Shown here: piece by piece, positions 13,996 to 58,500 of the stretch
Layout: the number at the start of each line of letters is the position of its first letter
How positions within the stretch are numbered: position 1 is the first letter of the stretch
Assembly (NCBI GenBank): GCA_963846585.1
Contig: CAWJWO010000002.1
Span: 263,592-327,591, forward strand
Direction: 5' to 3'
Length of the DNA stretch: 64,000 nucleotides
Source of the DNA: an uncultured Bacteroidota bacterium
GTDB lineage: Bacteria; Bacteroidota; Bacteroidia; Bacteroidales; JAAUTT01
Notes under the pieces: generated by a model
What the model was told of the DNA's origin: nothing
Database searches by the model: none
What the model saw: only the letters and a program-made list of their open reading frames with translations
Program-made: the position numbers and the translations under genes

Positions 13996-14341
13996 AAGGA
14001 AAGTAGGCAGAGAATGGAAGAAGGCAGAAGCAGTGGGACATGAAAAGACATGAAAAGACGTGAGACGTGAGACGTGAAAAGAAGACAGAAGGCAGAAGAC
14101 AGAAAAAAGATAAAAGATTTAAGGAAAAAGATTTGAGATTTTAGAATCTAGATTTTAGAATTGAGATTTATAAATATCAATCTGGTAAAATATATTAAAT
14201 CTTAAATCACCAATCGCAAATCTGGAATCTTAAATCAAAGAGTCTTGGCTCATGGTTCTTGGCTCTTGGCTCTGTTTTTACAACCAACAACTAAGCACTA
14301 AGCACTAAGCACTAAGCACTAAGCACTAAGCACTATATAAA
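13996..14341 (+). repeat. Composite mosaic repeat element, copy A (fills the MCCase-beta / hydratase spacer)
   Basis: Module order: purine-rich GGCAGAAG units, (GACGTGA)x3 at 14057-14077, GAAGACAGAAGGCAGAAGACAG, AGATTT/GAGATTT-rich core, agtcttggctcatggttcttggctcttggctctg at 14241-14274, caaccaacaa, then (CTAAGCA)x6 at 14291-14336, then ATG. Collinear with the reverse complement of 34108-34396. Confidence 0.85.
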
Positions 14342-18545: not shown

Positions 18546-18549
18546 AATT

Positions 18550-18580
18550 TAGTGCATAGTGCTTAGTGCATAGTGCTTAG
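18550..18580 (+). repeat. TAGTGCW heptamer array
   Basis: tagtgcatagtgcttagtgcatagtgcttag, 5 nt after the ACAD stop. Confidence 0.9.
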
Positions 18581-18848
18581 GAGTAAGAGATTAGTATATT
18601 TATAAATTTTAAAACATTTTAATAGACTTGTAACTTGAAACCAGTAACTATTTACATACTACTTACTAATGCGAATTAAGAGTTAAAATATTTATACTTA
18701 TTATCTAATAATTAGCAGAATATCATTTACATTAGCCAACTTTAACCCCAACCCCTTAAAAAGCATAGCCGTCAGGTTATGTCTATATAGAGCAGAATGA
18801 TAGATATTTAGTGTAAATGTAATAAAATATTAGTGTAATTAAGAGCGT

Positions 18849-19337
18849 ATGTCAACGACTGGATTTGTATATATTATGACCAATAAGAACAAAACAACTT
18901 TATATATTGGGGTTACAAACAATTTATGCAGAAGAATACATGAGCATAAAAATCATTTGATAAATGACACTTTTACAGATAAGTACAATATTGAATACTG
19001 TATTTATTACGAAGAATTTCAATATTTTGATTTGGCAATACAAAGAGAAAAAGAATTAAAAAAGTGGAACCGTCAAAAGTTTATTTCGAGTGACGCGAGA
19101 AAACTCAAGATTAACAAAAAGAACCCCGAATGGAAAGTGCTGGTAACAGAGCGTGGCTTTGTTCGGAATAATAAATCATTTTCTCAACATGTTTCGGACA
19201 TAGTCAATGAATTACAACCAATTAAAGAGATTCCTCCCTGCGGTCGGAATGACGACCAGCAGAATTGTGGCGTTGCTGGAGGTGAAGAGAGTGCGGCAAA
19301 GCCGCACTCTCTTCACCTCCAGCTCTCTGACCAATAA
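18849..19337 (+). CDS. GIY-YIG nuclease family protein (COG2827-like) with atypical C-terminal extension
   Basis: N-terminal GFVYIMTNKNKTTLYIGVTNNLCRRIHEH...YYEEF...AIQREKELKKWNR is the GIY-YIG core. The last roughly 60 codons run through a GC-rich hairpin region and are probably not a native domain. A 9-codon in-frame insert (ISSDARKLK, about 19082-19108) overlaps a repeat-motif copy at 19080-19106. Confidence 0.75.
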   Translation: MSTTGFVYIMTNKNKTTLYIGVTNNLCRRIHEHKNHLINDTFTDKYNIEYCIYYEEFQYFDLAIQREKELKKWNRQKFISSDARKLKINKKNPEWKVLVTERGFVRNNKSFSQHVSDIVNELQPIKEIPPCGRNDDQQNCGVAGGEESAAKPHSLHLQLSDQ

Positions 19338-19369
19338 CGACAGTCATTTCGAGCGAAGCGAGAAATCTC
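19227..19369 (+). other. GC-rich compound stem-loop region at the 3-prime end of the GIY-YIG ORF
   Basis: The outer 27-nt arms 19227-19253 (gagattcctccctgcggtcggaatgac) and 19343-19369 (gtcatttcgagcgaagcgagaaatctc) are 22/27 complementary. They enclose a 6-bp hairpin (19256-19279) and a perfect 23-bp stem (19275-19323). Confidence 0.6.
19275..19323 (+). other. Perfect 23-bp inverted repeat with a 3-nt loop
   Basis: gctggaggtgaagagagtgcggc-aaa-gccgcactctcttcacctccagc read directly. GC-rich, inside an AT-rich locus. Confidence 0.9.
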
Positions 19370-19514
19370 AAATAAAGTATTATAATTGTATATAAGCATT
19401 TTACAAGCGTTAACCTGACGGCTATGCCTTTTTAAGGGGTTGGGGTTAAAAAATACTAAAATGAATAAATATTGTCTTGAATAATTATAACAATAATTAA
19501 ATCCTTAATTCGCA

Positions 19515-19535
19515 TTACGACTTACGACTTACGAC
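19515..19535 (+). repeat. (TTACGAC)x3 array
   Basis: ttacgacttacgacttacgac ends 7 nt before the fni ATG. The same unit occurs at 12305-12318 and 61692-61705. Confidence 0.9.
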
Positions 19536-19542
19536 TAAATTT

Positions 19543-34107: not shown

Positions 34108-34396
34108 TATAAAATAGTGATTAGTGCTTAGTTGTTAGTTGCAAAAACAGAGCCAGGAGCCAAGAACCAGGAGCCAAGACTTTATGATGATTCTAGATTT
34201 AATATTTTAATAGTCTTTCTAAATTGTAAATCTTAAATCTCAAATCTGGAATCTCAAATCTTTTATCTTTTTTCTGTCTTCTGCCTTCTGTTTTCTGATT
34301 GCTGTCTTCTTTTCACGTCTCACGTCCCACGTCTCACGTCCCATATCTTGGTCTTGGTTCCTGGCTCTTGGCTCTTGGTTCCAACCTGAAATTACA
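34108..34396 (-). repeat. Composite mosaic repeat element, copy B (fills the thyA / folA spacer)
   Basis: The reverse complement reads ggaaccaagagccaagagccagg..., (GACGTGR)x4, gaaaagaagacag...cagaaggcagaagacagaaaaaagataaaagatttgagatt..., aagtcttggctcctggttcttggctcctggctctgtttttgcaactaacaactaagcactaatcacta, then the ATG of folA. This is collinear with copy A. Confidence 0.85.
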
Positions 34397-43399: not shown

Positions 43400-43401
43400 A
43401 A

Positions 43402-43512
43402 TAGTGCTTGGTTCATAGTGCTTAGTGCATAGAAGTTGTAAAGGTTGTAGGGGTTATAGAGGTTGAAGAGGATGTAAAAATACAACTTTACAACTTTTAC
43501 AACCTTTACAAC
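43402..43512. repeat. TAGTGCW array (43402-43432) and inverted TACAACCTT arrays (43435-43512)
   Basis: tagtgcttggttcatagtgcttagtgcatag. Then gttgtaaaggttgta (43435-43449) is perfectly complementary to tacaacctttacaac (43498-43512), with degenerate units between them. Confidence 0.9.
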
Positions 43513-43537
43513 TATATAACCATAATACTTTTCAAAT

Positions 43538-45040
43538 ATGAAGCCCTTGCATGTTTTCATTTTTGGCTTTTGCGTTTTCATAATTTTAGCTTCTATTTCA
43601 CTGATATTTAATAATCATCCCCCTGAATTATTAGGATATACGTTTAATGTGCCTCCCTTTTCAATAAATAATTATAAAACCAAATACAAGGATATTTCAC
43701 AAATCATTAAACTTTCAAAAATCATTTCGGATACAACCACAATCTGCAAACCTGATTCATTAAAATCAATTACTAAAAAACTTCCCCAAAACACAAGGAC
43801 TACATATAAATATTCAAAATCAGGAATAAATGCAGATAGTATCCGCTATATTATTCGTGAAATTGAATTCCCTGATGGCCAGGATACTTTATTATACCCA
43901 TTTTTCAGACAATTAGGCAATTTACAGGAAAACAATAAATTAATCAGAATTTTGCATTATGGTGATTCCCAAATTGAAGGTGACAGAATAACTTCATACT
44001 TAAGAAATCAATTGCAAACTCAGTTCGGAGGAAACGGAACAGGCCTTTTACCAATTATTGCTGCAAACCCGTCATCAATGTCGTATGTATATAAGACATC
44101 AGGTAACTGGACTAAATATTCTCCCTTTCAACCATCTTCAACAGATATACATTTTAATAAATACGGGGCACTTATTTGTTTTGCCAAAATGAATGAAACT
44201 TCCGTATTTTCAGAAAAAGATAAGGATATAGAGGGATGGATTAATTTACAACATTCGAATTTACCATATCCCTTAACAGGAAATTTTCAGGTATGCCGTG
44301 TGTTTTATGGGTTTAATAAATCTCCAATGATCATTGAACTTGATCAGAAAAAACAATTGCTTGATGCAGAACTTTATGAAGCTTCGCCTGGTTTAAGTGT
44401 TGCCCAATGGATTGTTCATTGGCCTGTAAACGATTTAACTGTTAAAATTAAAACCAACGCTTCTCCTTATGTTTTTGGAATAGCTCTTGATGGAAAAAAT
44501 GGTATTGCGGTTGATAACATACCTTTAAGGGGAAGTTCAGGACTTGAATTCACTAAAATGGACCTGACGTTTCTTCATGAGTTTTATAAATTACTTAATG
44601 TTAAATTATTAATTCTTCAGTTTGGTGTCAATATTGTTCCATATGTAACTGATAATTATGATTATTACAAAAAGAATTTCATTCAGCAATTGAAATTATT
44701 AAAAGTGTATAATCCTGATATTTCTATTATAGTAATTGGCGTGAGCGATGTATCAAGAATTGGGAAAAATGGATATGAATCCTATCCGAATATTGAAAAA
44801 ATCAGAAATGCTCAAAAAAAAGCTGCATTTGAAACAGGTTGTGCATTTTGGGATAGCTTTGAAGCTATGGGGGGCAACAATTCCATGCCCAGCTGGGTAT
44901 TTGCCAACCCACCGTTAGCCCAGAAGGATTTTATACACTTCAATACAACCGGTGCAAAAATTATCGGGGAAATGTTCTATCGTTCCTTCATTAAAGAGTA
45001 TACCAATTTTACTGATTATAATAAAGCAATAACTCCTTAA
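43538..45040 (+). CDS. SGNH/GDSL-like hydrolase or acyltransferase family protein (partner of MBOAT)
   Basis: 500-aa ORF with an N-terminal TM segment. Block I-like ILHYGDSQIEGDR, then QFGVN and a DFIHFN (DxxH-like) block near the C-terminus. Sits 4 nt upstream of the MBOAT gene. Confidence 0.55.
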   Translation: MKPLHVFIFGFCVFIILASISLIFNNHPPELLGYTFNVPPFSINNYKTKYKDISQIIKLSKIISDTTTICKPDSLKSITKKLPQNTRTTYKYSKSGINADSIRYIIREIEFPDGQDTLLYPFFRQLGNLQENNKLIRILHYGDSQIEGDRITSYLRNQLQTQFGGNGTGLLPIIAANPSSMSYVYKTSGNWTKYSPFQPSSTDIHFNKYGALICFAKMNETSVFSEKDKDIEGWINLQHSNLPYPLTGNFQVCRVFYGFNKSPMIIELDQKKQLLDAELYEASPGLSVAQWIVHWPVNDLTVKIKTNASPYVFGIALDGKNGIAVDNIPLRGSSGLEFTKMDLTFLHEFYKLLNVKLLILQFGVNIVPYVTDNYDYYKKNFIQQLKLLKVYNPDISIIVIGVSDVSRIGKNGYESYPNIEKIRNAQKKAAFETGCAFWDSFEAMGGNNSMPSWVFANPPLAQKDFIHFNTTGAKIIGEMFYRSFIKEYTNFTDYNKAITP

Positions 45041-45044
45041 AATA

Positions 45045-46595
45045 TTGCATAAAGTTATTTGGATGAAAAGTAACATTTTCTACATAGTGTTAAGCCAGCT
45101 CTCTTATGATCCGTCTTCTCCTATGCTGTTTACCAATATATCGTTCTGGTTGTTCTTTCTTATTGTTTTGCTTGGATATTCAATAATTTATAAGAATTTA
45201 GCTTTAAGGAATGGTTACCTGTTGTTCGTAAGCCTTTTTTTCTATTATAAGTGCAGTGGCATATTCGTATGGCTGTTGGTAATTTCAATTATAACAAATT
45301 ATTTCATCGGTATTGGAATTGCACACAGCTCGAAAAAATTTATCAGGAAACTATATGTTGTTCTGGGGATAATATTATGTATAGCCTTATTATCGTATTT
45401 TAAGTATACCGGATTTTTTATCGAATGTTGGAACAGGATTTTCAATACCAATTACAGTGTAATAAATTATATTGCTATATGGGCCAATCAAATTGATAAA
45501 ACCTCGCACTTCGATATCAACACAATCATACTACCGGTGGGTATTTCATTTTATACATTTCAGGCATTAAGCTATTTGATTGATCTATATCGATATAGGA
45601 CTAAGCCTGCTAAAAATATAATCGATTTTGGGTTTTATAAATCTTTTTTCCCTCAAATAGTATCAGGGCCAATTGTCAGGGCTGCCGAGTTTATCCCTCA
45701 AATTTACAAAGGCTATGCAATTACAAACAGGGAAATGGGACATGCATTATTTTTAATTATAAATGGATTAATTAAAAAAATGATCATTTCTGATTATTTA
45801 TCCTTAAATTTTGTGGATAGAATTTTCGATAGTCCGCTTAGTTATTCGGGGTTCGAAAATTTATTGGGAGTTTACGGGTATGCTATTCAAATCTATTGTG
45901 ATTTTTCAGGTTACACTGATATAGCTATTGGAATTGCCCTGTTGTTAGGATTCAGGATACCAATCAATTTTAATTCCCCCTATAAAGCTGCAGATCTCAC
46001 AGATTTCTGGAGACGCTGGCATATATCTTTATCCTCCTGGCTGCGTGATTATCTGTATATTCCATTGGGAGGAAACAGAAAAGGCAAAATAATTACTAAC
46101 TTAAACCTGTTGATTACAATGTTGATTGGTGGATTATGGCATGGAGCAAATATAAGGTTCCTAATCTGGGGTGCTTTGCATGGAATTGGCTTAATAATAA
46201 ATAAGTTATGGCAAAAAATATTTGGAAATAAAAAATCCGTAAGGAGATTAAGAAAGTTCATTTATCAATTCTTAACATTCCAGTTTGTAACATTCGCATG
46301 GATATTCTTCAGAAGCCAAAACCTGCCTAATGCATTTCAAATTATCAATCAAATTGTACATCATTTTCAGTTTCAGCTGATACCTGATATAATACAAAGT
46401 TATCCTGCCATTATTACAGTTTTATTTGCAGGTTTTGTAATGCACTGGTTACCTTATTCCATAAAAGAAAAATACAGAGGATGGTTTATTAAAACGCCAA
46501 TTTATGTAAAAGCAATTATTACCATCATGGCAGTTATTCTAATTGTTCAGGTTAAATCTTCAGTTTTACAGCCATTTATATATTTTCAATTTTAG
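45045..46595 (+). CDS. MBOAT family O-acyltransferase (AlgI/DltB/PatA-like)
   Basis: Polytopic ORF with [38 protein letters not shown] and GLWHGA (catalytic His). The true start may be the ATG at 45063 or 45123 ([12 protein letters not shown]). Confidence 0.85.
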
Positions 46596-47452
46596 CCCAG
46601 ATAACCTTTCAGCAATTTGCTTCGGGAAGTATGGCGCAATCGGCGAATAGCTTTTTCTTTAATCTGTCGCACCCGTTCCCGTGTCAATCCAAATTTCTCC
46701 CCTATCTCTTCAAGAGTCATTTCCTGAATCCCAATACCAAAAAATAATTTTATAATATCACGTTCCCGTTCAGTAAGGGTAGCTAATGCCCTGTCAATTT
46801 CCCTGCTGAGCGACTCATTAATAAGACGGCGGTCAGCATTAGGAGAATCATTATTTATTAAAACATCAAGCAAACTATTATCTTCTCCTTCGACAAATGG
46901 AGCATCTACAGAAACATGCCTTCCTGATACGCGCAATGTGTCAGCTACTTTTTCCTTTGGAAGTTCAAGGACATCAGCCAGTTCTTCAGGTGAAGGCGTA
47001 CGTTCGTTCTCCTGTTCAAATTTTGAAAAGGCTTTATTTATTTTATTCAGCGATCCTACCTGGTTTAAAGGCAGACGAACTATTCTGGATTGTTCTGCCA
47101 ATGCCTGCAAAATAGATTGACGAATCCACCAAACTGCGTATGAAATAAATTTAAATCCACGAGTTTCATCAAATTTTTCTGCTGCTTTAATCAAACCAAG
47201 GTTTCCTTCATTTATTAAGTCGGGAAGACTAAGCCCTTGGTTCTGATATTGTTTAGCCACAGATACCACAAAACGTAAATTTGCCCTGGTTAATTTTTCA
47301 AGAGCAGCCCTGTCACCCTTTTTAATTCGTTGAGCTAATTCAACTTCTTCTTCTACAGTAATTAATTCTTCTTTACCTATTTCCTGCAGATATTTATCAA
47401 GCGAAGCGCTTTCTCTGTTTGTAATTGATTTTGTGATCTTTAATTGTCTCAT
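46592..47452 (-). CDS. rpoD: Primary RNA polymerase sigma factor (sigma-70 family, Bacteroidota SigA type)
   Basis: 286-aa ORF. Region 2 [35 protein letters not shown], region 4.2 [28 protein letters not shown]. Confidence 0.92.
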
Positions 47453-47530
47453 TTCCCGCGATCAGAATTTTGTGCGAATTTAGGCTATTTTAATATATAA
47501 TTCAACATATATTATACAAATAAGTTCGAT

Positions 47531-47555
47531 AAAAAAAGGCCTGCCCAGGCAAGCC
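47531..47555 (-). terminator. Intrinsic terminator between htrA and rpoD
   Basis: Minus-sense ggcttgcc-tg-ggcaggcc followed by ttttttt (plus strand aaaaaaaggcctgcccaggcaagcc). GC-rich stem plus U7. Confidence 0.65.
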
Positions 47556-47558
47556 CTA

Positions 47559-47700
47559 TTTTAGTTTTTAGTTGTTGGTTGCTAGTTGCTAGCTGCTAAA
47601 GGTCATTTATGCAATATTTAATTTATTTGGAATGCATTAAAATATAAAAATATAATCGAATAAATATTTAATTAACTAACAACCATCAACTAACAACTAA
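47559..47700. repeat. Inverted TTAGTTG / CAACTAA arrays bracketing an 82-nt AT-rich loop (htrA-rpoD spacer)
   Basis: 47559-47599 ttttagtttttagttgttggttgctagttgctagctgctaa. 47672-47700 ttaactaacaaccatcaactaacaactaa. The arms 47561-47589 and 47672-47700 are 25/29 complementary. Confidence 0.85.
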
Positions 47701-47701
47701 A

Positions 47702-49183
47702 TTACACTCCAAATGCATAATATGCAAGTACCCCATTCGGATATACACCTTCAATTAATACACCACCTTTAAATCCGGATAATTCATTTTTTACATCTTC
47801 TGTAGAATAAACAGGGTGATTATTTATTTTAGTGATAATAAAACCTTTTTGAACACCTTCATCCTTTAATTTGCCCTGAGCAAGGTTTAGCACTTTAACC
47901 CCTGACTTAATTCCCAGTTTATGTTTTTCAGCGGAGGACACTTCACCCAATTGAGCTCCTAAAAGGGATAATTCTTCATCATTTGATGTAATAATTTTGG
48001 TATTTCCTTCCATATTACGTAAGATAACTGATATTTGTTTCCTTTTATTATCCTGCATTATTACTAAATCGACTTTATCCTTTGGACGAAAACGGCTTAT
48101 CTGTTCCTGTAATTCAGAAGTGCTGTTTACATTTACATTATTAACTGATAAAATAATATCCCCCTCTTTTATCCCTGCGGCTTCGGCAGCTCCATCCTTA
48201 GCAATTCCGGCAACATAAACTCCCTCAATCTTATCAAGTTTTTTATCGCGCAGCAAATCTTCATCAATATCTTTTATTGAAACTCCCAACAATGCTCTTT
48301 GAACTTTTCCATATTCAATTATATCGGAAGCAACTTTTTTTACAATAGATACAGGTATAGCGAAGGAATTACCAATATAACTACCTGTTGGAGAAGCTAT
48401 AGCTGTATTAATTCCGATAAGTTCCCCTTTAGTGTTTACCAAAGCCCCGCCACTATTGCCAGGGTTAACAGCAGCATCTGTCTGGATAAACGATTCAATT
48501 GCATAATTTCCCCTTTTATCATTTCTATCACTAAGAATATTAAGATTCCTGGCCTTAGCACTTACAATCCCTGCAGTTACCGTTGAAGTAAGATTATATG
48601 GATTACCAACTGCAAGTACCCATTCACCAACTTTAATATCATCTGAATTTCCATAAGTTATATATTGAAGATTGGATTCATCAATTTTTAAAACTGCAAT
48701 ATCGCTATCCGGATCCCTGCCAATGACTTTGGCCGTATAAGTGTGTTTATTATTAAGAGTAACTTCAACCTTATCAGCTTCATCAATAACATGATTGTTT
48801 GTTATAATATATCCATCAGCCGAGATAATAACTCCTGATCCAAAACCAGATACCGGTTGTGGTTTTTCCTGAAAATTCCTTTCGCCAAAGAAAAAATCGT
48901 AAAAAGTACCGCCTGATGTAACATTTTGAACTGAAGTTGTCTTTACATGAACCACTGCATGGACAGTTTTATCTGCAGCATATGTAAAGTCAAGGCAATT
49001 GCCATTAGTACCTGTTGACAGCTGTGTCAAATGAGGGTATTGGGGTTGTTCTGCAGAAATAATAACAGGCTTACGAACAAATTTTGAATAAATAAATACT
49101 GTGATAAGGCATGTAGCCAATATCATCAAAAATAATCCTCCCGGATTCTGGATTTTCCTATTGATAAATAATGAAGTTTTCAT
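47702..49183 (-). CDS. htrA: HtrA/DegP/DegQ-family periplasmic serine protease with two PDZ domains
   Basis: Catalytic triad context TNNHVI, DIAVLKI, GNSGGALVN, followed by two PDZ-like segments. Confidence 0.9.
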   Translation of the reverse strand: MKTSLFINRKIQNPGGLFLMILATCLITVFIYSKFVRKPVIISAEQPQYPHLTQLSTGTNGNCLDFTYAADKTVHAVVHVKTTSVQNVTSGGTFYDFFFGERNFQEKPQPVSGFGSGVIISADGYIITNNHVIDEADKVEVTLNNKHTYTAKVIGRDPDSDIAVLKIDESNLQYITYGNSDDIKVGEWVLAVGNPYNLTSTVTAGIVSAKARNLNILSDRNDKRGNYAIESFIQTDAAVNPGNSGGALVNTKGELIGINTAIASPTGSYIGNSFAIPVSIVKKVASDIIEYGKVQRALLGVSIKDIDEDLLRDKKLDKIEGVYVAGIAKDGAAEAAGIKEGDIILSVNNVNVNSTSELQEQISRFRPKDKVDLVIMQDNKRKQISVILRNMEGNTKIITSNDEELSLLGAQLGEVSSAEKHKLGIKSGVKVLNLAQGKLKDEGVQKGFIITKINNHPVYSTEDVKNELSGFKGGVLIEGVYPNGVLAYYAFGV

Positions 49184-49308
49184 TTTTTCTGATTTAATTA
49201 CAAAATATTACAGGTAAACTACAAAATAACTGCCATATTTTTGTATTTAATGATTAATTAACAATATTTAACAGGGAGATACTATTATGAAGCTTTAGAT
49301 TGATATAC

Positions 49309-49416
49309 GTTTATAAGATTTATAAGGTTTATAAGGTTTATAAATTTATGTGTTTATTTGTTTAGTGTTTATATTAAATTCCATAAACTTTATAAACTCT
49401 ATAAACTTCATAAACC
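49309..49416. repeat. Inverted GTTTATAAG / ATAAACT arrays (gyrB-htrA spacer)
   Basis: 49309-49373 gtttataagatttataaggtttataaggtttataaatttatgtgtttatttgtttagtgtttata. 49381-49416 ccataaactttataaactctataaacttcataaacc. Confidence 0.85.
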
Positions 49417-49473
49417 AACTATTCATTTGTAATAGTAATTTTATTTACAAATTTTGTCCATCTGCAAATCGTT

Positions 49474-51513
<2,040 letters not shown>

Positions 51514-51589
51514 TTAAAGCAACGTAAAGATAACAAAATACCCTGTTAATACGACTTATTTTACAGTCATATTGTTGTTAAATTATTAA

Positions 51590-52705
51590 CTATTTTACTT
51601 CCCAAAAACCTGACTCATTCCTTCGTATTTTATCTGCGGTTAAAATCCTGGGATTATTATAAAGCTGTGTTAATTTTTCATTATTGTTGCCAAAATGGTT
51701 AATAAAATATCCCCAAACCATAAACCATGTCCAGTTGGTTTGCATTTTTAAAACAGTATCTGATGGGAACTGCCCTATTTCACCTAATCCGACAGGCTTA
51801 TTTTTGCCAAGGCTGACCAAATCGTCCTGATGGCTTTGTTTATAATCAGCACGGTAAACATCAGCTGCAAGAACATCTACCCATTCATTCCCGGGATAAA
51901 AAAGAGAGTAATCATATGCTTCATCTCCGGCTATCTGACGGGGAGCATTGGCATCCCATACCCATATCAGATTATTGAGCTTATTTTGTTTTGTAAAATA
52001 TTTATACATCATAATCCACAGGCGTTTAAAACCCTTGTCACCTTTATGGTTACACCACCAAAACCAGACCCCATTCATTTCATGGTAAGGTCTCCAAAGC
52101 ACAGGAACCTTGGCATCACGGAGCTGTAGCAGGTAGCCGGCAATCATATCTGCCTGCTTTTTCCAAGCCAAATTAAGTCTTGTACCTTCAGTAACCAATG
52201 AATCGAAGGTTGCCTTATCAGGACGGTTTTCCATAGCCCAAACCGATGAACCGTTGCAGGAATCGCCTTCAGTCGGAAAACAATGGTGCCACATTAACGT
52301 TACAATTTTCCCGGACCGGTATTGTTTTATTGCTTCTTTAACCATGGCATCACGCAATTTCAAAGGGCTTATTCCATTAAATTGTATTGTAAGCATCGGG
52401 TCATTTAGGTTAAGCGGGCCACAATGATGATAATTCTTTGCAGTTTCTCCCTCAACGTTAAAACTGAAATCGCAACCCCAGACAGCAGGTTCCTTTGAAG
52501 TTATTTTCTTAACCGAATCGCTGTATGCAGTAGGACTGGCTATAAAATTATGCTGACCGGCAAGTATGTACTTTCCTCTGATTTGAGTAAGAAATTTTAA
52601 AAGGTTCTTTGCCTCTTGGGATTTTTCAACTTTTTTGCATTCGTTGACTTTGCAACTTCCGATAATTAAAGCTAACCCAAGTATTACAAGTGATATACTT
52701 TTCAT
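51590..52705 (-). CDS. Glycoside hydrolase family 26-like (beta-mannanase-like) lipoprotein
   Basis: Lipobox IIGSCK. VLWRPYHEMNGVWFWW resembles the GH26 catalytic-acid block RPxHEMNGxWFWWG. Confidence 0.7.
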   Translation of the reverse strand: MKSISLVILGLALIIGSCKVNECKKVEKSQEAKNLLKFLTQIRGKYILAGQHNFIASPTAYSDSVKKITSKEPAVWGCDFSFNVEGETAKNYHHCGPLNLNDPMLTIQFNGISPLKLRDAMVKEAIKQYRSGKIVTLMWHHCFPTEGDSCNGSSVWAMENRPDKATFDSLVTEGTRLNLAWKKQADMIAGYLLQLRDAKVPVLWRPYHEMNGVWFWWCNHKGDKGFKRLWIMMYKYFTKQNKLNNLIWVWDANAPRQIAGDEAYDYSLFYPGNEWVDVLAADVYRADYKQSHQDDLVSLGKNKPVGLGEIGQFPSDTVLKMQTNWTWFMVWGYFINHFGNNNEKLTQLYNNPRILTADKIRRNESGFWEVK

Positions 52706-53000
52706 TGTGTTCTTTATCTATTGTTTGTATGAGTCTTAATAAACCTCTACAATTTAAATAAATAAACCTGAAATTGCAAACTTTGCTAAAGTCTTTACAT
52801 TATTATCAATGATTTCTATGTTCCTTGAAGAAGTCAAATTTTTAATAATAATATCCCGATTAATACTAATTAATCTAACGTATTTTGAAAATTTCAGCAA
52901 TTTTATCAGTTCCTTTAAATAACATAAATATTATCAGGACAATAATACCCCAAAGGGGTATTAGCAACGCCCAGTGATATGAATTAATATATAAATTTAT

Positions 53001-53600
53001 GCCCTGAAAGGGCCTAAGAAACAGCACAGGGCAACGCCCTGTGAAATATTGTGAATACAATGCCACAATCATTATCAAAAGTCTATGTACATATTATATT
53101 TAGTACAAAGAACAGGCAAAATCTTATTGATGACAACATTGAAAATTCATTGCATGATTATTTGGGAGGTATTTGCAAAGGATTAGAGTGTAATCCTGTC
53201 AAAATTGGTGGACATAAAGAACATGTACATATACTATGTCTTTTATCTCGTAAAGTGGCTCAAATGAATTTGGTTGAAGAACTAAAAAAACAATCTTCCA
53301 AATGGATCAAAACGAAAGATAACGTATATTCAAATTTTTACTGGCAGGATGGATATGGTATTTTTTCAATTAATCCTAATCAAACGGATATAGTTATTGA
53401 ATATATTGAGAAGCAACATGAACATCATAAAAATAATAGTTTCCAGGTAGAATTCCGTGATTTTCTAAATAAATATAATGTCGGATATGATGAACGTTAT
53501 GTTTGGAATTAGGCTGATTCCCCTTCAGGGCTTAAAATTCTGATTTGCCAATTTGTTCACAGGGCGTTGCCCTGTGCTATTGATTATGCCCTTTCAGGGC
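53001..53600 (+). mobile_element. RAYT gene with flanking REP-like GC-rich hairpins in inverted orientation
   Basis: The left hairpins gccctgaaagggc (53001-53013) and agcacagggcaacgccctgtgaa (53023-53045) recur as exact reverse complements on the right: ttcacagggcgttgccctgtgct (53556-53578) and gccctttcagggc (53588-53600). An extra hairpin, taccccaaaggggta, lies at 52946-52960. Confidence 0.7.
53060..53512 (+). CDS. REP-associated tyrosine transposase (RAYT) / IS200-like Y1 transposase
   Basis: VYVHIIFSTKNRQNLI, GGHKEHVHILC (HUH motif), and FYWQDGYGIFSI with the catalytic Tyr region. The track ORF starts at the GTG at 53051. Confidence 0.85.
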   Translation: MPQSLSKVYVHIIFSTKNRQNLIDDNIENSLHDYLGGICKGLECNPVKIGGHKEHVHILCLLSRKVAQMNLVEELKKQSSKWIKTKDNVYSNFYWQDGYGIFSINPNQTDIVIEYIEKQHEHHKNNSFQVEFRDFLNKYNVGYDERYVWN

Positions 53601-53630
53601 AAATGCGAATTGCCACTAACAACTAGCAAT

Positions 53631-55316
53631 TTACAAAGAATAACTCAGCCCTGCCATCAAATTAAATCTCTGTGAAGGATACTGGTTCCAGACATAATAC
53701 TTTGATGCTGTGAAATTATTCAAATGCAGCCAAAAAGATAAAATTTTGGTATACCTGTATTCTGCGCCAAGATTAAAATCAAGTACTGAGGGCATAACTT
53801 TATAATTCCCATCAGGAATATACGGAAAATCTCTGGAGTAAATTTTGGCATATCGCTTTCCAAGTTCCAAAATATCAAAGTTTACAAGTATTTTATTACC
53901 AAGGTTATATTTTGCCGAGAATGTAGCATCTGATTTTGGTTTTTGCCAGGCATATTGCTGTTGAAACATTTGGTACTGATATATATTGATTTTAGCAGCA
54001 AACGACAATTCTGTTGAAAAATCGTAACTGGCATCAAGCGTTAATGTTAACTGGTTTGCATTATCATATACTACATTGAAATGGTTTTGCAAAACAGTAG
54101 CAGCGTCATTTACATAAAAGTATTGATTTGTGAATTGAGAATAATCAAATTTTAAATTATAGGAAACCTTTGAAACTAAACTGCCTTTAATTCCACCGTA
54201 TAATGATAACCGGTCGTTAGAGTTTTTTACTAGCAAATCGGGTAGTATAAAGGGATTTTCCGTTGCAATATTCTGATAACTATGATTAATGTCTTTACCA
54301 TAAATGCCAATGAAAGGCAGTAATATATTTTTAACTACAACAAACTGGAAATCTGCCATCGGATAAAGTCTTAGGGAAACTGTATTCATTTGATCTTCAA
54401 AAGTAATATTTAATCCCAGTTTAAGGCGGTATTCTTCATTTGAGAAACAGACCGAAGGATATATCACTAACAATGAATTTACAGCACCTGTAGAATCAAG
54501 TGTTTTGTCCCGGTGCAACTGGTCAAAACTTAAATCAAGATCAAACAATTTATTTGCATATAGTTGGGAAAACTTAGCATTCAGGTTTAAATCATTTTCT
54601 ACATGGTTAAACCTGTCCTGAAAATAATCATACTTAATATCTCCATGATAATTCAATCTTGATGAGTCGGAGTGAAATGATTGAATACCGGCTTTTATAT
54701 CAGCCAAAAAGTAATTTTGACGAATATTGCCTTTCTGTAAAATAGTATCAATTTGAGGATTGGAACCATAATCATACACAGTATTGCTTCGAACACCGCC
54801 TTCTGCAAATATACAGGACTCACCGATAAATTTTTTACCAAATACTGTTGCAGAAGCATTGGAATATCCGGCAAATACACTTTGATTATTATCCAAAGTA
54901 ATAGCACCCGATGAAGATTGGTAATCCAATTTAGCACCAGCACTATATTTCCTGGAGCGTAAAGTATTCAAATACAGTTCAGCCATGGGAGTTTGATAAT
55001 TCCCCAGTCCCAATATCAAATATCCGTTGTAAAGCTTCGATAAAGGCATATTGAGCATTTTGGCTGCATTAATTTGTGAAACCTCATACTCGGTATTAAT
55101 CATCACAGGCACAACGTTATATTGAAAAGATGGCTTAACGGTAGTTGAATCATTAATTATTGGGAGAACATTTAATTTTTTGGCATCTGCAACTGAAGGC
55201 TGGTATGGTTGCACAACTTCAACTTCCTTCTTTATTGTTGCCTGGCTAAATACCTCTCCAATACTTATAATACTGAAAATAACGATTAATACTATATTAA
55301 TTGTTTGTTTTGTCAT
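53631..55316 (-). CDS. Putative outer-membrane beta-barrel protein (hypothetical)
   Basis: 561-aa ORF with signal peptide (VIFSIISIGEVFSQA). Alternating-hydrophobic strands throughout and a C-terminal LMAGLSYSL beta-signal-like end. No family recognised. Confidence 0.5.
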   Translation of the reverse strand: MTKQTINIVLIVIFSIISIGEVFSQATIKKEVEVVQPYQPSVADAKKLNVLPIINDSTTVKPSFQYNVVPVMINTEYEVSQINAAKMLNMPLSKLYNGYLILGLGNYQTPMAELYLNTLRSRKYSAGAKLDYQSSSGAITLDNNQSVFAGYSNASATVFGKKFIGESCIFAEGGVRSNTVYDYGSNPQIDTILQKGNIRQNYFLADIKAGIQSFHSDSSRLNYHGDIKYDYFQDRFNHVENDLNLNAKFSQLYANKLFDLDLSFDQLHRDKTLDSTGAVNSLLVIYPSVCFSNEEYRLKLGLNITFEDQMNTVSLRLYPMADFQFVVVKNILLPFIGIYGKDINHSYQNIATENPFILPDLLVKNSNDRLSLYGGIKGSLVSKVSYNLKFDYSQFTNQYFYVNDAATVLQNHFNVVYDNANQLTLTLDASYDFSTELSFAAKINIYQYQMFQQQYAWQKPKSDATFSAKYNLGNKILVNFDILELGKRYAKIYSRDFPYIPDGNYKVMPSVLDFNLGAEYRYTKILSFWLHLNNFTASKYYVWNQYPSQRFNLMAGLSYSL

Positions 55317-55344
55317 AATATCCTATTTTACTGTATTTTAATTA

Positions 55345-55520
55345 GAACCATGAACCAATAATTAGTGCTTAGTGCCCAGTGCTTAGTGCTTAGTAAATAA
55401 AGTATAAACATTGGAAATAATAATACTCTTTTTTAGCCCTGTATTCCAATATCATTTATCCTCATGTAAATATCATAATATTCAACTTCTAAGCACTAAG
55501 CTCTATGCACTATGCACTAT
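55345..55520. repeat. Inverted TAGTGCW / CTAAGCA arrays bracketing a 94-nt loop (TPR gene to beta-barrel gene spacer)
   Basis: 55362-55394 ttagtgcttagtgcccagtgcttagtgcttagt. 55489-55520 ctaagcactaagctctatgcactatgcactat. The arms are 27/32 complementary. gaaccatgaaccaa lies at 55345-55358. Confidence 0.85.
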
Positions 55521-58500
55521 TTCTTCACGTCCACTTCAATATCCTGTTGTTTTTCCTTTACCTGCGAACCTGTATATTGTGAAACAAGCTTGTCATGTTT
55601 TACTTTTGCTTCGGTTTTAATCCCGTCATTATTATTTTCGTAGTAATCAAGAATGCTTTGCAGCGTATTTACTGCCTGAAATTCATCGTTACGGTCAACA
55701 TAAATATCGCTGAGCAAAATAAAACTCTTGCCAAGCCAATATTGATAAGGAGTATTTTTATCAATGAAATTCATAATTTCTTTTTGGGCGTCGTCCTTTT
55801 TATTTTCATCGTAATACAATTTTGCCAACAGGTATTTGCATTCTGAACCTTCTTTACTTTTCAAATCTTTGGCAACCAACTTCAGTTCCTCTGCAGCTGA
55901 TGTCGTATTGTTGTTTTCAAGATACGATTTTGCCATAATGTAATGAGCTTCCCTGTAAATTTCCCCGGGTAGGTTTTCATAAAGAAGCAGTGCTTTTGCA
56001 CTTACAATTGCATTATCGGAATTTGAAAGCTTAAAATTACAACGCATCTGTCCCAGTCTGGCTTCCATCACATTGCTCTTTATTTCAGCTTCAGTTTCCA
56101 AGCGTTTATATAGTTCCAATGCTTTGGCAAAATTTTCCTTTTCGAAATAAATACCTGCTGCAACAAATAATGATTGCTCGGTAAATATATTACGCGAGGC
56201 TGAAATAACATATTCATACCCCTTTAAGGCCTCATCCTGTTTATGATTTTTATTGTTGCAATCGGCTATGTAGAAATTGGCATTCAGAATAAAATTTCCA
56301 TTTTTGTATTTTTCAAGGTATTTTGAAAATTGTTGTATTGATTTTTCACAGTCTCCACTCATATAAATATTTTCAGCTGAAGAATATGTCAAGGAATCCT
56401 GTTCGGAGAGCCTTAAGTTTGAACTTTGTCCTTTACTTTCAAGGTAAGCAAAATAAGTATCAATATCATTTTTATCAACATAAACAGATTTTAATCCAAT
56501 ATATGCATCATGCGATTCAGGTGTACCCGGGAACTGATCAATTACTTTTTTATAGGCAGCAATAGCTTCTGATTGTTTATCCTGATTAAAATAAATAAGG
56601 CCTAATTGAAGATAAGCTTTTGCAACATAACTGCTTATTGAAAACTCATTGATAATTCTATAAAAAGTCCTTATAGCCTGATCATTCAAATTAAGGGTCA
56701 CATATGCCCTGCCAAGTTCAAATAATGCGTGGTCAACATATAAAGATTTCGGATAATCCTTCATCAACTCATTCAGAAAATTTACCTTTTTTTCCGGCCT
56801 GTTTACTAAACCAAGTGAAAATGCTTTTTGAAAGAGAGAATAATCGGAATCAGCTGCTTTTAAGTTTATTGCTTTTTCATAATTTTCAATCGCAACCCAA
56901 TATGATTGTTTCATGAAATAGCAATCTCCTATACGGTTATATGCATCAGCAATTGTTTTTCCTTTTGTATTTTTCTGCAGGTCAGTATAGCGCCGGAACC
57001 AGTCGAGTGCTTCGTCAAACTTATTAAGATTAAACCAGGAATAAGCAATATTATAGTCAACAAAATTGTATTCGTTAAGATTTGCCGCCAGTGGATAAGT
57101 AATAAAGCGGTTATACGTTTCTATTGCCTCTGAATAATTATGTAGCCTGTAATTTGCCTCTCCTTTCCAATAATATGAACGTGCTGCAATTTCTTTATCA
57201 AACTCTTCATATTCAAGAGATTTATCGAATAACAAAATTGATGTATCAAATTTCTGATTATTAATAAGCTCTAACCCTCTGAAAAAAGCAATATGCTGAT
57301 AAGCTTTTCTTACGCTATTGTCCTTTATTTTAATTTTTTGAAGCGATTCAAGTGCTGCACGGTAGTTTTTTGTTGTCATATAAGCCATCATCAGATAGTT
57401 ATATGCCATATCGCTTCTATTTGAGTGAGGATAAAGCTTAAGATACTCGTTAAATGCTTTTACAGCTTCATTAAATGGCGATAACGATAATTCGTAAGTC
57501 GAAACTGCATAATAATATAATGCATTTTCCTTAATATCAGGGTCAAAATCCATTGAAGATGCCGAAGAAAATGCAAGGCGTGCTTTTTGTATGTCGCTGT
57601 TATGTATGTAACAATCAGCTAAATGATACAATGCATTCTGGCTTAGGGCTGTATTTACCAATGTTATTGGTTCAAAATTCCTGATCGCATTGTCATAATC
57701 ATCAGCTTTATAATAGGCAAAAGCAAGTTGATACCGATCTTCAGGGGTCATTGATTTCGCCTTTTCAGCAAATTTTTCCAGGTATGGGAGTGATTCCTTA
57801 AATTTGCCGAGACGATAGTACGATTCTCCGATTATCCTCGACATTTCTGCTACCCTTTTTTCGACCACAGAATCGAGTAAGGGTGGTGCATACTCTACAA
57901 CTTTATCATACTTTTTTTGCAGGAAATAAATTTGTGCAATATAATACGGTACAATTGATGCAAATGTCTCATCATCACGAAGCCTTAGAAATCCTTCAAG
58001 GGCAGTTTCGTAATTTTTTTGTTCATACGCTATATGTGAATAATAATATAAGGCTGCAGAAGTATATTTTGTATCAATATCCTTAATTTCATAAAAGTTT
58101 AACCTGGCTTTTTCGAAATTTTTATCCATAAAATAACAATAACCTGATTCGAAATGATATTCTGCCAGTTGATCACTATTAAGTTTATGTACATCCACTT
58201 TTTCGAACCATTCAGCAGCTCTTTTAAATTTTTTGTTGTTATACTCGTAGTGTGCCAAATTAAAATAAGCATCATTCACTTTACAATTTGCAGGATTTGA
58301 AGAGATAAAACTGGTAATCCGTTTCACTGCATCAGGATTAAAAAGTTCCATTGCACATAACGAGGCATAATATTCTGCCGTGGCTTTAGTTTCGGAATTA
58401 ACCAACGCTTCCTTTTTAATGACAACATCAAAATAATGCTGAGCAGCCACATATTTTTGTTTTTCAAACAATTCCAAACCTTCCTTCAAATTCTGGTCAG

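Follow-up and report, generated by a model that had tools for sequence, protein, structure and literature searches.

Heptamer repeats of the short tandemly repeated repetitive (STRR) type were described in cyanobacteria decades ago and long simple sequence repeats (LSSR) in 2007, while the S23p proteins of intervening sequences (IVS) have been known since the early 1990s. To our knowledge, heptamer repeats and S23p/IVS proteins are both long-standing puzzles without an accepted function. The present analysis deals with four inverted pairs of tandem arrays (pairs 1 to 4) in a 64,000-nt stretch from an uncultured member of the Bacteroidales (GenBank assembly GCA_963846585.1, contig CAWJWO010000002.1, positions 263,592 to 327,591), which is referred to as the window throughout. 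In each pair, an array of a unit X is followed within the same intergenic gap by its reverse complement, rc(X). The evidence moderately favors the reading that the four pairs belong, as copies without a gene, to a class of inserted hairpins with X...rc(X) tandem-array arms, the full-size copies of which bear a gene of the four-helix-bundle family PF05635 (23S_rRNA_IVP, Avd-like). Such an element would have short tandem arrays of a single unit family as arms, with the G-rich arm first, and its copies of 422–528 nt would carry the PF05635 gene in the loop. Judged from the sequences, the arm-ORF-arm build of these full-size copies is the same as that of 23S rRNA IVS bearing an open reading frame (ORF).

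Convergent heptamer pairs in Xanthomonas and paired tandem sites in Geobacter are already known from the literature. Arrays of the heptamer GGGAATC were reported for Xanthomonas campestris and X. citri and those of GGGGAYT for Nostoc (Rehm et al., 2015; PMC4692102). The GGGAATC arrays comprise about four units and are mostly intergenic, near or overlapping stop codons, with the G-rich strand being coding downstream or non-coding upstream of genes; 70–75 convergent pairs per genome represent potential stem-loops (PMC4692102). The window shares with Xanthomonas the close spacing of two opposite-strand arrays of a single unit, the G-rich copy coming first, as well as intergenic heptamers next to stop codons. 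Whereas Xanthomonas features one G-tract family read via G-quadruplexes (G4), more than 50 families unable to form G4 occur here in a Bacteroidales genome of 34% GC, which in addition carries an approximately tenfold array load and shows a link to PF05635 cassettes. Oriented TAACTGA arrays (MacGregor, 2015; PMC4679880) and heptamer LSSR (Mrazek et al., 2007, as summarized in PMC4679880) are likewise comparable, together with STRR, in that heptamers dominate, are intergenic, occur sporadically across phyla and are oriented relative to start codons. The LSSR and STRR reports, the former as represented in that summary, concern single direct arrays and do not describe mirror polarity at both gene edges, pairing or a link to cassettes.

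In Geobacter metallireducens, paired opposite-strand sites of three to five tandem units of 7–9 nt with variable spacing were described (Aklujkar et al., 2009; PMC2700814). The likeness to the paired opposite-strand arrays of the window is evident, but the Geobacter sites were read as regulator binding sites, amount to only tens of copies and were reported without an associated gene. Transferred to the window, this proposal would make the arrays paired double-stranded DNA binding sites for a global regulator or nucleoid protein. The variable spacing of the published opposite-strand sites (PMC2700814) and the roughly five units per array found here would agree with such a role, which is nevertheless highly improbable, as more than 50 unrelated families would require as many regulators and the sites are located closer to stop codons than to promoters and are absent in congeners with the same genes.

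The IVS in the 23S rRNA of Coxiella burnetii comprises 428–444 nt with a terminal stem of about 28 bp and an S23p ORF (Warrier et al., 2016; PMC4990558). It is cut midway along its stem by RNase III, and IVS also occur in Leptospira and Brucella (PMC4990558). Terminal inverted-repeat stems are common to both systems, and six cassettes of the genome studied here hold a PF05635 ORF between their arms at a similar size. With 28–37 nt at 82–87% complementarity, the arms of the window pairs correspond to the about 25–30 bp typical of an IVS stem. Unlike IVS, the elements are situated between protein genes and not in helix 25 or 45 of 23S rRNA, their arms are tandem repeats, and the four window pairs lack a PF05635 ORF.

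All four inverted pairs were recovered where a preliminary description of the window had placed them, with arms of tandem heptamers or nonamers as called by Tandem Repeats Finder (TRF; Table 1). The location of all four gaps between co-directional genes, claimed there as well, agrees with the gene calls, which represent a crude longest-ORF map of the genome: pair 1 separates the genes of an SLT/LysM and a GDSL protein, pair 2 those of HtrA and RpoD, pair 3 those of GyrB and HtrA, and pair 4 those of a tetratricopeptide repeat (TPR) protein and a 561-aa protein. The statement that the hairpins span whole intergenic regions is true of pairs 1 and 4, which take up most of their gaps, whereas in the other two gaps the hairpin is confined to the 60% nearest the stop codon (pair 2) or to the middle third (pair 3). 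The GC hairpin with a T7 tract that was said to follow pair 2 in minus sense is present. Folding of the sense RNAs with 200 shuffles per region, a check suggested at the outset, yielded the predicted long stems in all four cases, and 0 of 200 shuffles folded as well (–40.8, –49.7, –34.6, and –57.4 kcal/mol with z-scores of –4.7, –5.8, –4.5, and –5.0 for pairs 1 to 4, respectively). The loops of 8–95 nt contain no ORF, and no second copy of the loops of pairs 2, 3, and 4 exists anywhere in the genome, on which ground a transposable element of the miniature inverted-repeat type or another mobile element with a conserved core was rejected for pairs 2–4. An intrinsic terminator was rejected too, since the four hairpins have long, AT-rich stems, loops of up to 95 nt and no U-tract, and pair 2 has a separate canonical terminator. 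Scans of the window with Rfam and for tRNA gave no matches, rRNA included.

Table 1. Array pairs and adjoining signals in the window (positions count from the first letter of the window; UTR, untranslated region).
Feature	Position	Strand	Remarks and basis
Unpaired TAGTGCW heptamer array	43401–43432	+	1 nt past the SLT/LysM stop codon; absent from the 26-nt orthologous gap of the closest congener G012; TRF
Pair 1, complementary match	43434–43461 / 43486–43513		28 nt at 82%; core 43435–43449 / 43498–43512 complementary at 15/15, as described earlier
Pair 1, G-rich arm	43434–43478		about five nonamer units (AGGTTGTAN); TRF, fold
Pair 1, C-rich arm	43481–43513		about four nonamer units (TACAACYTT), short-loop hairpin; TRF, fold
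Canonical GC hairpin + U7 terminator after pair 2	47531–47555	–	kept in G012
Pair 2, complementary match	47557–47587 / 47674–47704		31 nt at 87%; 86 nt between arms
Pair 2, G-rich arm (+ strand)	47557–47598		TTAGTTG family; 3' arm in the minus-sense htrA 3' UTR; TRF, fold
Pair 2, C-rich arm (+ strand)	47674–47704		abuts the htrA stop codon (ORF end 47702); sequence, fold
htrA upstream region	49184–49276	–	TTATTTTG box resembling the Bacteroidetes –7 promoter element; conserved with G012, outside pair 3; by-eye alignment
Pair 3, complementary match	49309–49341 / 49383–49415		33 nt at 82%
Pair 3, first arm	49309–49349		nonamers TTTATAAGR, G>C on the + strand; TRF, fold
Pair 3, second arm	49383–49415		nonamers ATAAACYYY; TRF, fold
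Pair 4, complementary match	55357–55393 / 55489–55525		37 nt at 84%; 95 nt between arms
Pair 4, G-rich arm (+ strand)	55357–55394		TTAGTGC x4.7; start codon of the 561-aa gene 40 nt away; TRF, fold
Pair 4, C-rich arm (+ strand)	55489–55525		in minus sense, the leading TAG of TAGTGCA is the TPR gene's stop codon

The window sequence was found to be identical or 99.9% identical in three further public assemblies, which rules out an assembly artefact. Other public contigs are 99.9–100% identical to the window without any difference inside the arrays, and a scan of Joint Genome Institute (JGI) metagenomes for strain-level relatives returned only relatives at 33% and no close one. The assemblies further bear on the idea that the arms are recombination sites which invert the enclosed segment, forming a phase-variable promoter switch as in the invertons of Bacteroides. 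Inverted repeats around unique AT-rich segments of 40–95 nt in a host of the Bacteroidales would suit such a switch, but a single orientation in four independent assemblies, the location of the conserved htrA upstream region outside pair 3, arms matched at just 82–87%, and the lack of an adjacent recombinase gene make it an extremely remote prospect.

The origin of the pairs becomes apparent from a comparison with 12 genomes of the same genus. The closest congener, G012 (GyrB 94%, mean protein identity of about 72%), keeps the whole gene order, and its four orthologous gaps are without arrays, measuring 26, about 200, 107, and 55 nt compared with 138, 249, 290, and 200 nt for pairs 1 to 4. As all four pairs are missing from this syntenic genome, they represent lineage-specific inserts. 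Beside the inserted blocks, G012 shares the htrA upstream region with its TTATTTTG box and the terminator/promoter region before rpoD. These conserved flanking signals show that the pairs were inserted in between a stop codon and signals that were already there, or in what used to be operon-type gaps. The elements thus evidently entered the lineage after its split from the closest sampled congener, and according to the alignments they occupy either the stretch from a stop codon to the signals conserved for the following gene or former operon gaps of 26–55 nt. Since the terminator after pair 2 is conserved in G012, pair 2 lies inside the htrA 3' UTR. On the genome scale, three consecutive TAGTGCW units have 460 matches here and zero in 11 of the 12 congeners, and the array density of G012 is about one sixth of that of the present genome. 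In the htrA-rpoD gap of G012 (L093:12307–12410), an unrelated 27-nt direct repeat, taattaaacgaatcttttgaaaag, occurs twice at the site of pair 2, and the stretch between stop codon and terminator appears to be a hot spot of turnover in both species.

The four pairs are part of a genome-wide phenomenon. In the genome of the window (4.07 Mb, 34.5% GC, Bacteroidales, 86.6% coding), TRF listed 2243 rows of period 7, 832 of period 8 and 749 of period 9. After the removal of overlapping rows prior to counting, 2402 arrays were left (1550 of period 7, 430 of period 8, and 283 of period 9), with a mean of about five units and, in 89% of them, a midpoint outside ORFs. They comprise more than 50 unit families, the commonest being AGTTGTT, AGTGCTT/GCATAGT, AAAATTTG, AACCAAG/AACCAGG, and ATAAGGTTT, and some intergenic gaps are tiled end to end by consecutive arrays. 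A fixed 31-mer as the AACCAAG arm was discarded, its variant positions being near 50%. As a separate observation, a composite module of about 250 nt (window positions 13996–14341 and 34108–34396) is present in at least six copies on contig C2 at 73–76% identity, in which AACCAAG type, GACGTGA, AGAAGAC, AAAAGAT, AGATTTK, loop, AAATCTN, CTTGGTT type, and ACTAAGC follow each other in a fixed order.

Within a gap, nearly every family takes one orientation in the left half and its reverse complement in the right one, and this applies to all four gene arrangements. Reading 5' to 3' away from the closest gene edge, one meets the same form X in 87% of the arrays; in X, G exceeds C in 45 of the 54 families and C exceeds G in four. 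The outermost arrays adjoin genes, their median distance being –3 to +5 nt for stop codons and 6–40 nt for start codons, and the polarity weakens beyond about 100 nt from the gene edge. In a check for an age gradient, array purity was nearly the same at all distances from the edge, and the gradient within arrays was marginal. The units TAGTGCW, TTAGTTG, ATAAACCTT, and TACAACCTT all proved to be without G-tracts; as the same polarity rule holds without them, G4 formation cannot be its cause.

Pairing within gaps was assessed by comparing the left half of each of 2061 gaps with the reverse complement of its right half at a score of ≥14. Halves of the same gap reached this score in 232 gaps, a count that overlooks asymmetric pairs such as pair 2, compared with 46 for halves from different gaps, so that chance does not account for the pairs; of the comparisons with neighboring gaps, 3–4% reached the score. 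Both arms are arrays in 164 of the 232 gaps, with a median arm of 26 nt and a median loop of 98 nt. Pairs occur in 19% of convergent, 11–13% of co-directional, and 3.6% of divergent gaps, and where a gap holds two pairs, these are nested in 31 cases and crossed in 10. The left arm has G>C in 111 of 135 pairs genome-wide, and all four window pairs fit this convergent-array layout.

These figures also bear on the explanation that there is no element at all, but arrays born separately at gene edges by slippage, with an orientation filtered by composition (a G-poor leader before start codons, a C-poor and stop-rich strand after stop codons) and accidental hairpins wherever one family occurs at both edges. 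Such an origin would fit the fading of polarity with distance from the gene edge, the independence of the arms in length and unit variants, and the many unpaired arrays. Moreover, array-poor G012 has, over the 20 nt preceding start codons, a GC skew of –0.28, yet none after stop codons; a leader constraint could hence account for the polarity on the start side, but not for that on the stop side, where it likewise amounts to 87%. Same-family pairing within gaps at about five times the random and about three times the neighboring-gap level, the nested order favored 31:10, and PF05635 genes inside arms of the same build are further difficulties, and a separate birth of all arrays is therefore regarded as quite improbable.

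The preliminary description had instead seen selected RNA structures in the stems, which in 3' UTRs or between cistrons would stabilize upstream mRNA or direct processing like repetitive extragenic palindromes (REP) and bacterial interspersed mosaic elements (BIME). Strong predicted hairpins, the enrichment of pairs downstream of genes along with their rarity in divergent promoter gaps, and the position of pair 2 between stop codon and conserved terminator, a layout which recurs in another Bacteroidota genome (L040), are in line with this view. The same is true for the rarity of canonical terminators (GC-rich stem and T-run), which a simple scan detected in 5–14% of the gaps downstream of genes. 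Pairs as terminator substitutes were rejected, as terminators are rare everywhere and only slightly rarer where pairs occur. The compensatory change of unit number expected in both arms was not borne out: array lengths were uncorrelated in a comparison across loci, not strains (Spearman –0.01, n = 135 pairs). Likewise, no partner-specific complementarity was detected, an arm pairing equally well with its own partner and with same-family partners from other gaps; the two arms have since changed in length independently. Selected stems are unlikely in the light of these two results, the lack of pairs at four of four orthologous sites of the closest congener, the presence of the same arrays and polarity in divergent gaps, and a fast lineage-specific spread to more than 2000 arrays, which is unlike conserved regulators.

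The likeness to REP/BIME drawn in that description holds in so far as the elements are dispersed, intergenic and palindromic and their arm types flank single-copy genes as REPs flank the REP-associated tyrosine transposase (RAYT), while the defining features were not found. As in REP/BIME and the REPIN-RAYT systems (REPIN, paired REP sequences forming a hairpin) of Proteobacteria, hundreds of intergenic copies exist as singlets and inverted doublets, and effects at the mRNA level are plausible. In contrast to the REP unit, an imperfect GC-rich palindrome of 20–40 nt, the arms here are direct tandem arrays, AT-rich and not self-complementary, and the gene they flank, unlike that of REPIN-RAYT, does not encode a Y1 transposase. 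The only Y1_Tnp gene of the genome is an IS200-like one at window positions 53051–53512 (PF01797, E = 3e-24), flanked by 46-nt inverted repeats (53000–53045 / 53556–53601, 91% complementary) with two small GC-rich palindromes each. This locus represents a true unit of the REP/RAYT-like kind and has no relation to the tandem arrays. A Y1/RAYT transposase was also rejected as the driver of the arrays, because one copy here compares with zero to eight in array-poor congeners and copy number does not track array load.

The connection to a protein family is provided by the PF05635 genes, which were counted above the curated cut-off and confirmed with Pfam. Homology links PF05635 to the Avd protein of diversity-generating retroelements (PMC10053308). 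The genome encodes seven members, the nearest solved structure being 2GSC, an S23p protein of Xanthomonas, and six of the seven genes are enclosed by X...rc(X) array arms, each with one distinct abundant family (ACTAGGG, AACCAAG, TAGTGCW, which is the unit of pair 4, AAGTCGT, AAGGCAG/AAGACAG, and AAAATTTG). These six cassettes of 422–528 nt have arms of 20–48 nt, which end within 8 nt of host ORFs on both sides in three cassettes and on one side in two more. Ordinary genes are bracketed the opposite way, as rc(X)...gene...X, and only about three of them share the cassette orientation. Armed PF05635 copies were also detected in the congeners G005, G006, G008, and G011, while the copy of G012 is unarmed. 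In G031, a Bacteroidota genome unrelated to this one and with an abundance of GAATTGT arrays under the same polarity rule, at least seven of nine PF05635 genes examined are armed, the arms including the dominant units GAATTGT and GCTAGTGT. In the literature, no published link between PF05635 genes and tandem arrays was found. Besides, the PF05635 gene between AAGGCAG arms (contig C7:498609–499049, L142) has an open frame that runs into the array, so that its predicted N-terminus TEDRGQKTENRKTEDRK would consist of translated repeat units and the true start codon may lie further downstream.

Several results weigh against the reading of the four pairs as gene-less copies of the cassette-bearing class. 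A target-site duplication is not evident in comparison with the G012 gaps, the flanks of which are strongly diverged. Each gene-bearing cassette is single-copy and gives no sign of recent transposition. The gene-less loops contain no PF05635 remnants, weak matches being translated arrays, and together with the unique loops of pairs 2–4 this leaves a descent from gene-bearing copies unsupported. Furthermore, no cassette of this genome has arms of the unit family of pair 1, 2, or 3, although the nonamer of pair 1 has a cassette in G008, and the PF05635 copy number does not follow array load in the genus (11 in G001, two in G012). Protein similarity, finally, tracks the arm family only loosely. 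A strict co-evolution of PF05635 protein and arm unit was rejected on account of such loose support.

With regard to a possible effect of the inserted hairpins, pairs 1 and 4 are located in former operon junctions and pair 2 before a conserved terminator, wherefore their stems must be transcribed. Within these transcription units, the RNA of pairs 1, 2, and 4 would fold into imperfect duplexes of 25–37 bp, which by analogy with IVS stems are probably substrates of RNase III. An rnc gene encoding this enzyme is present in the genome; processing of the stems at the RNA level is thus plausible, considering that IVS stems of such length are cut by RNase III. Cutting would separate or destabilize the flanking cistrons. 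The absence from the closest congener, the uncorrelated arm lengths and the missing partner-specific match point to passengers rather than conserved regulators: the elements would be selfish or neutral and tolerated mainly downstream of genes, not selected for regulation.

For the seeding of such passengers, the four-helix-bundle protein would be the only candidate partner. A more far-reaching proposal, which is rather improbable at present, is that PF05635 proteins are cognate partners of the arrays in a system similar to REPIN-RAYT but without a transposase, each paralogue binding about five of its own units as single-stranded DNA or RNA and promoting seeding or maintenance at both edges of a gap. 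The solved PF05635 homologue is a pentamer. If true, cognate binding would explain arrays of four to five units, the many families, the mirror polarity, and the existence of ORF-bearing rRNA IVS.

The enclosure of PF05635 genes by dominant repeat families in two unrelated Bacteroidota genomes links two long-unexplained bacterial features, and since the dominant families are the arms around these genes, the question of function becomes testable. The polarity rule in more than 50 units unable to form G-quadruplexes removes the G4 explanation given for the Xanthomonas pattern. For annotation, hundreds of inserts of 100–250 nt in former operon junctions and 3' UTRs mean that operon and terminator predictions need care.

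Beside these results, some minor observations were made. Five of five array-bearing genomes checked lack SbcD (TIGR00619), the hairpin nuclease subunit, as does array-poor G012 (genomes: G000, which is that of the window, G012, and G031–G034), whereas G036 and eight of the 12 congeners have it. Long inverted repeats might become tolerable once SbcCD is lost, which is to be taken as a lead only, the genomes being few, partly incomplete, non-independent, and grouped by the feature itself. In the window, a GIY-YIG nuclease gene (18849–19337, PF01541) is located within a different inverted repeat (ccccaaccccttaaaaag..., 18546–19542), outside of which a TAGTGCA array is found on one side and a TTACGAC array on the other. 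In addition, a non-array inverted-repeat family, AAGAAAAGGCCAATTT ... AAACTTGGCCTTTTCTT, with a mostly constant spacer of 70 nt was encountered at C1:229729–229834, C3:261837–261940, C7:157101–157204, C7:272223–272403, and C7:326445–326572 of the same genome, which may represent another small element or a structured RNA.

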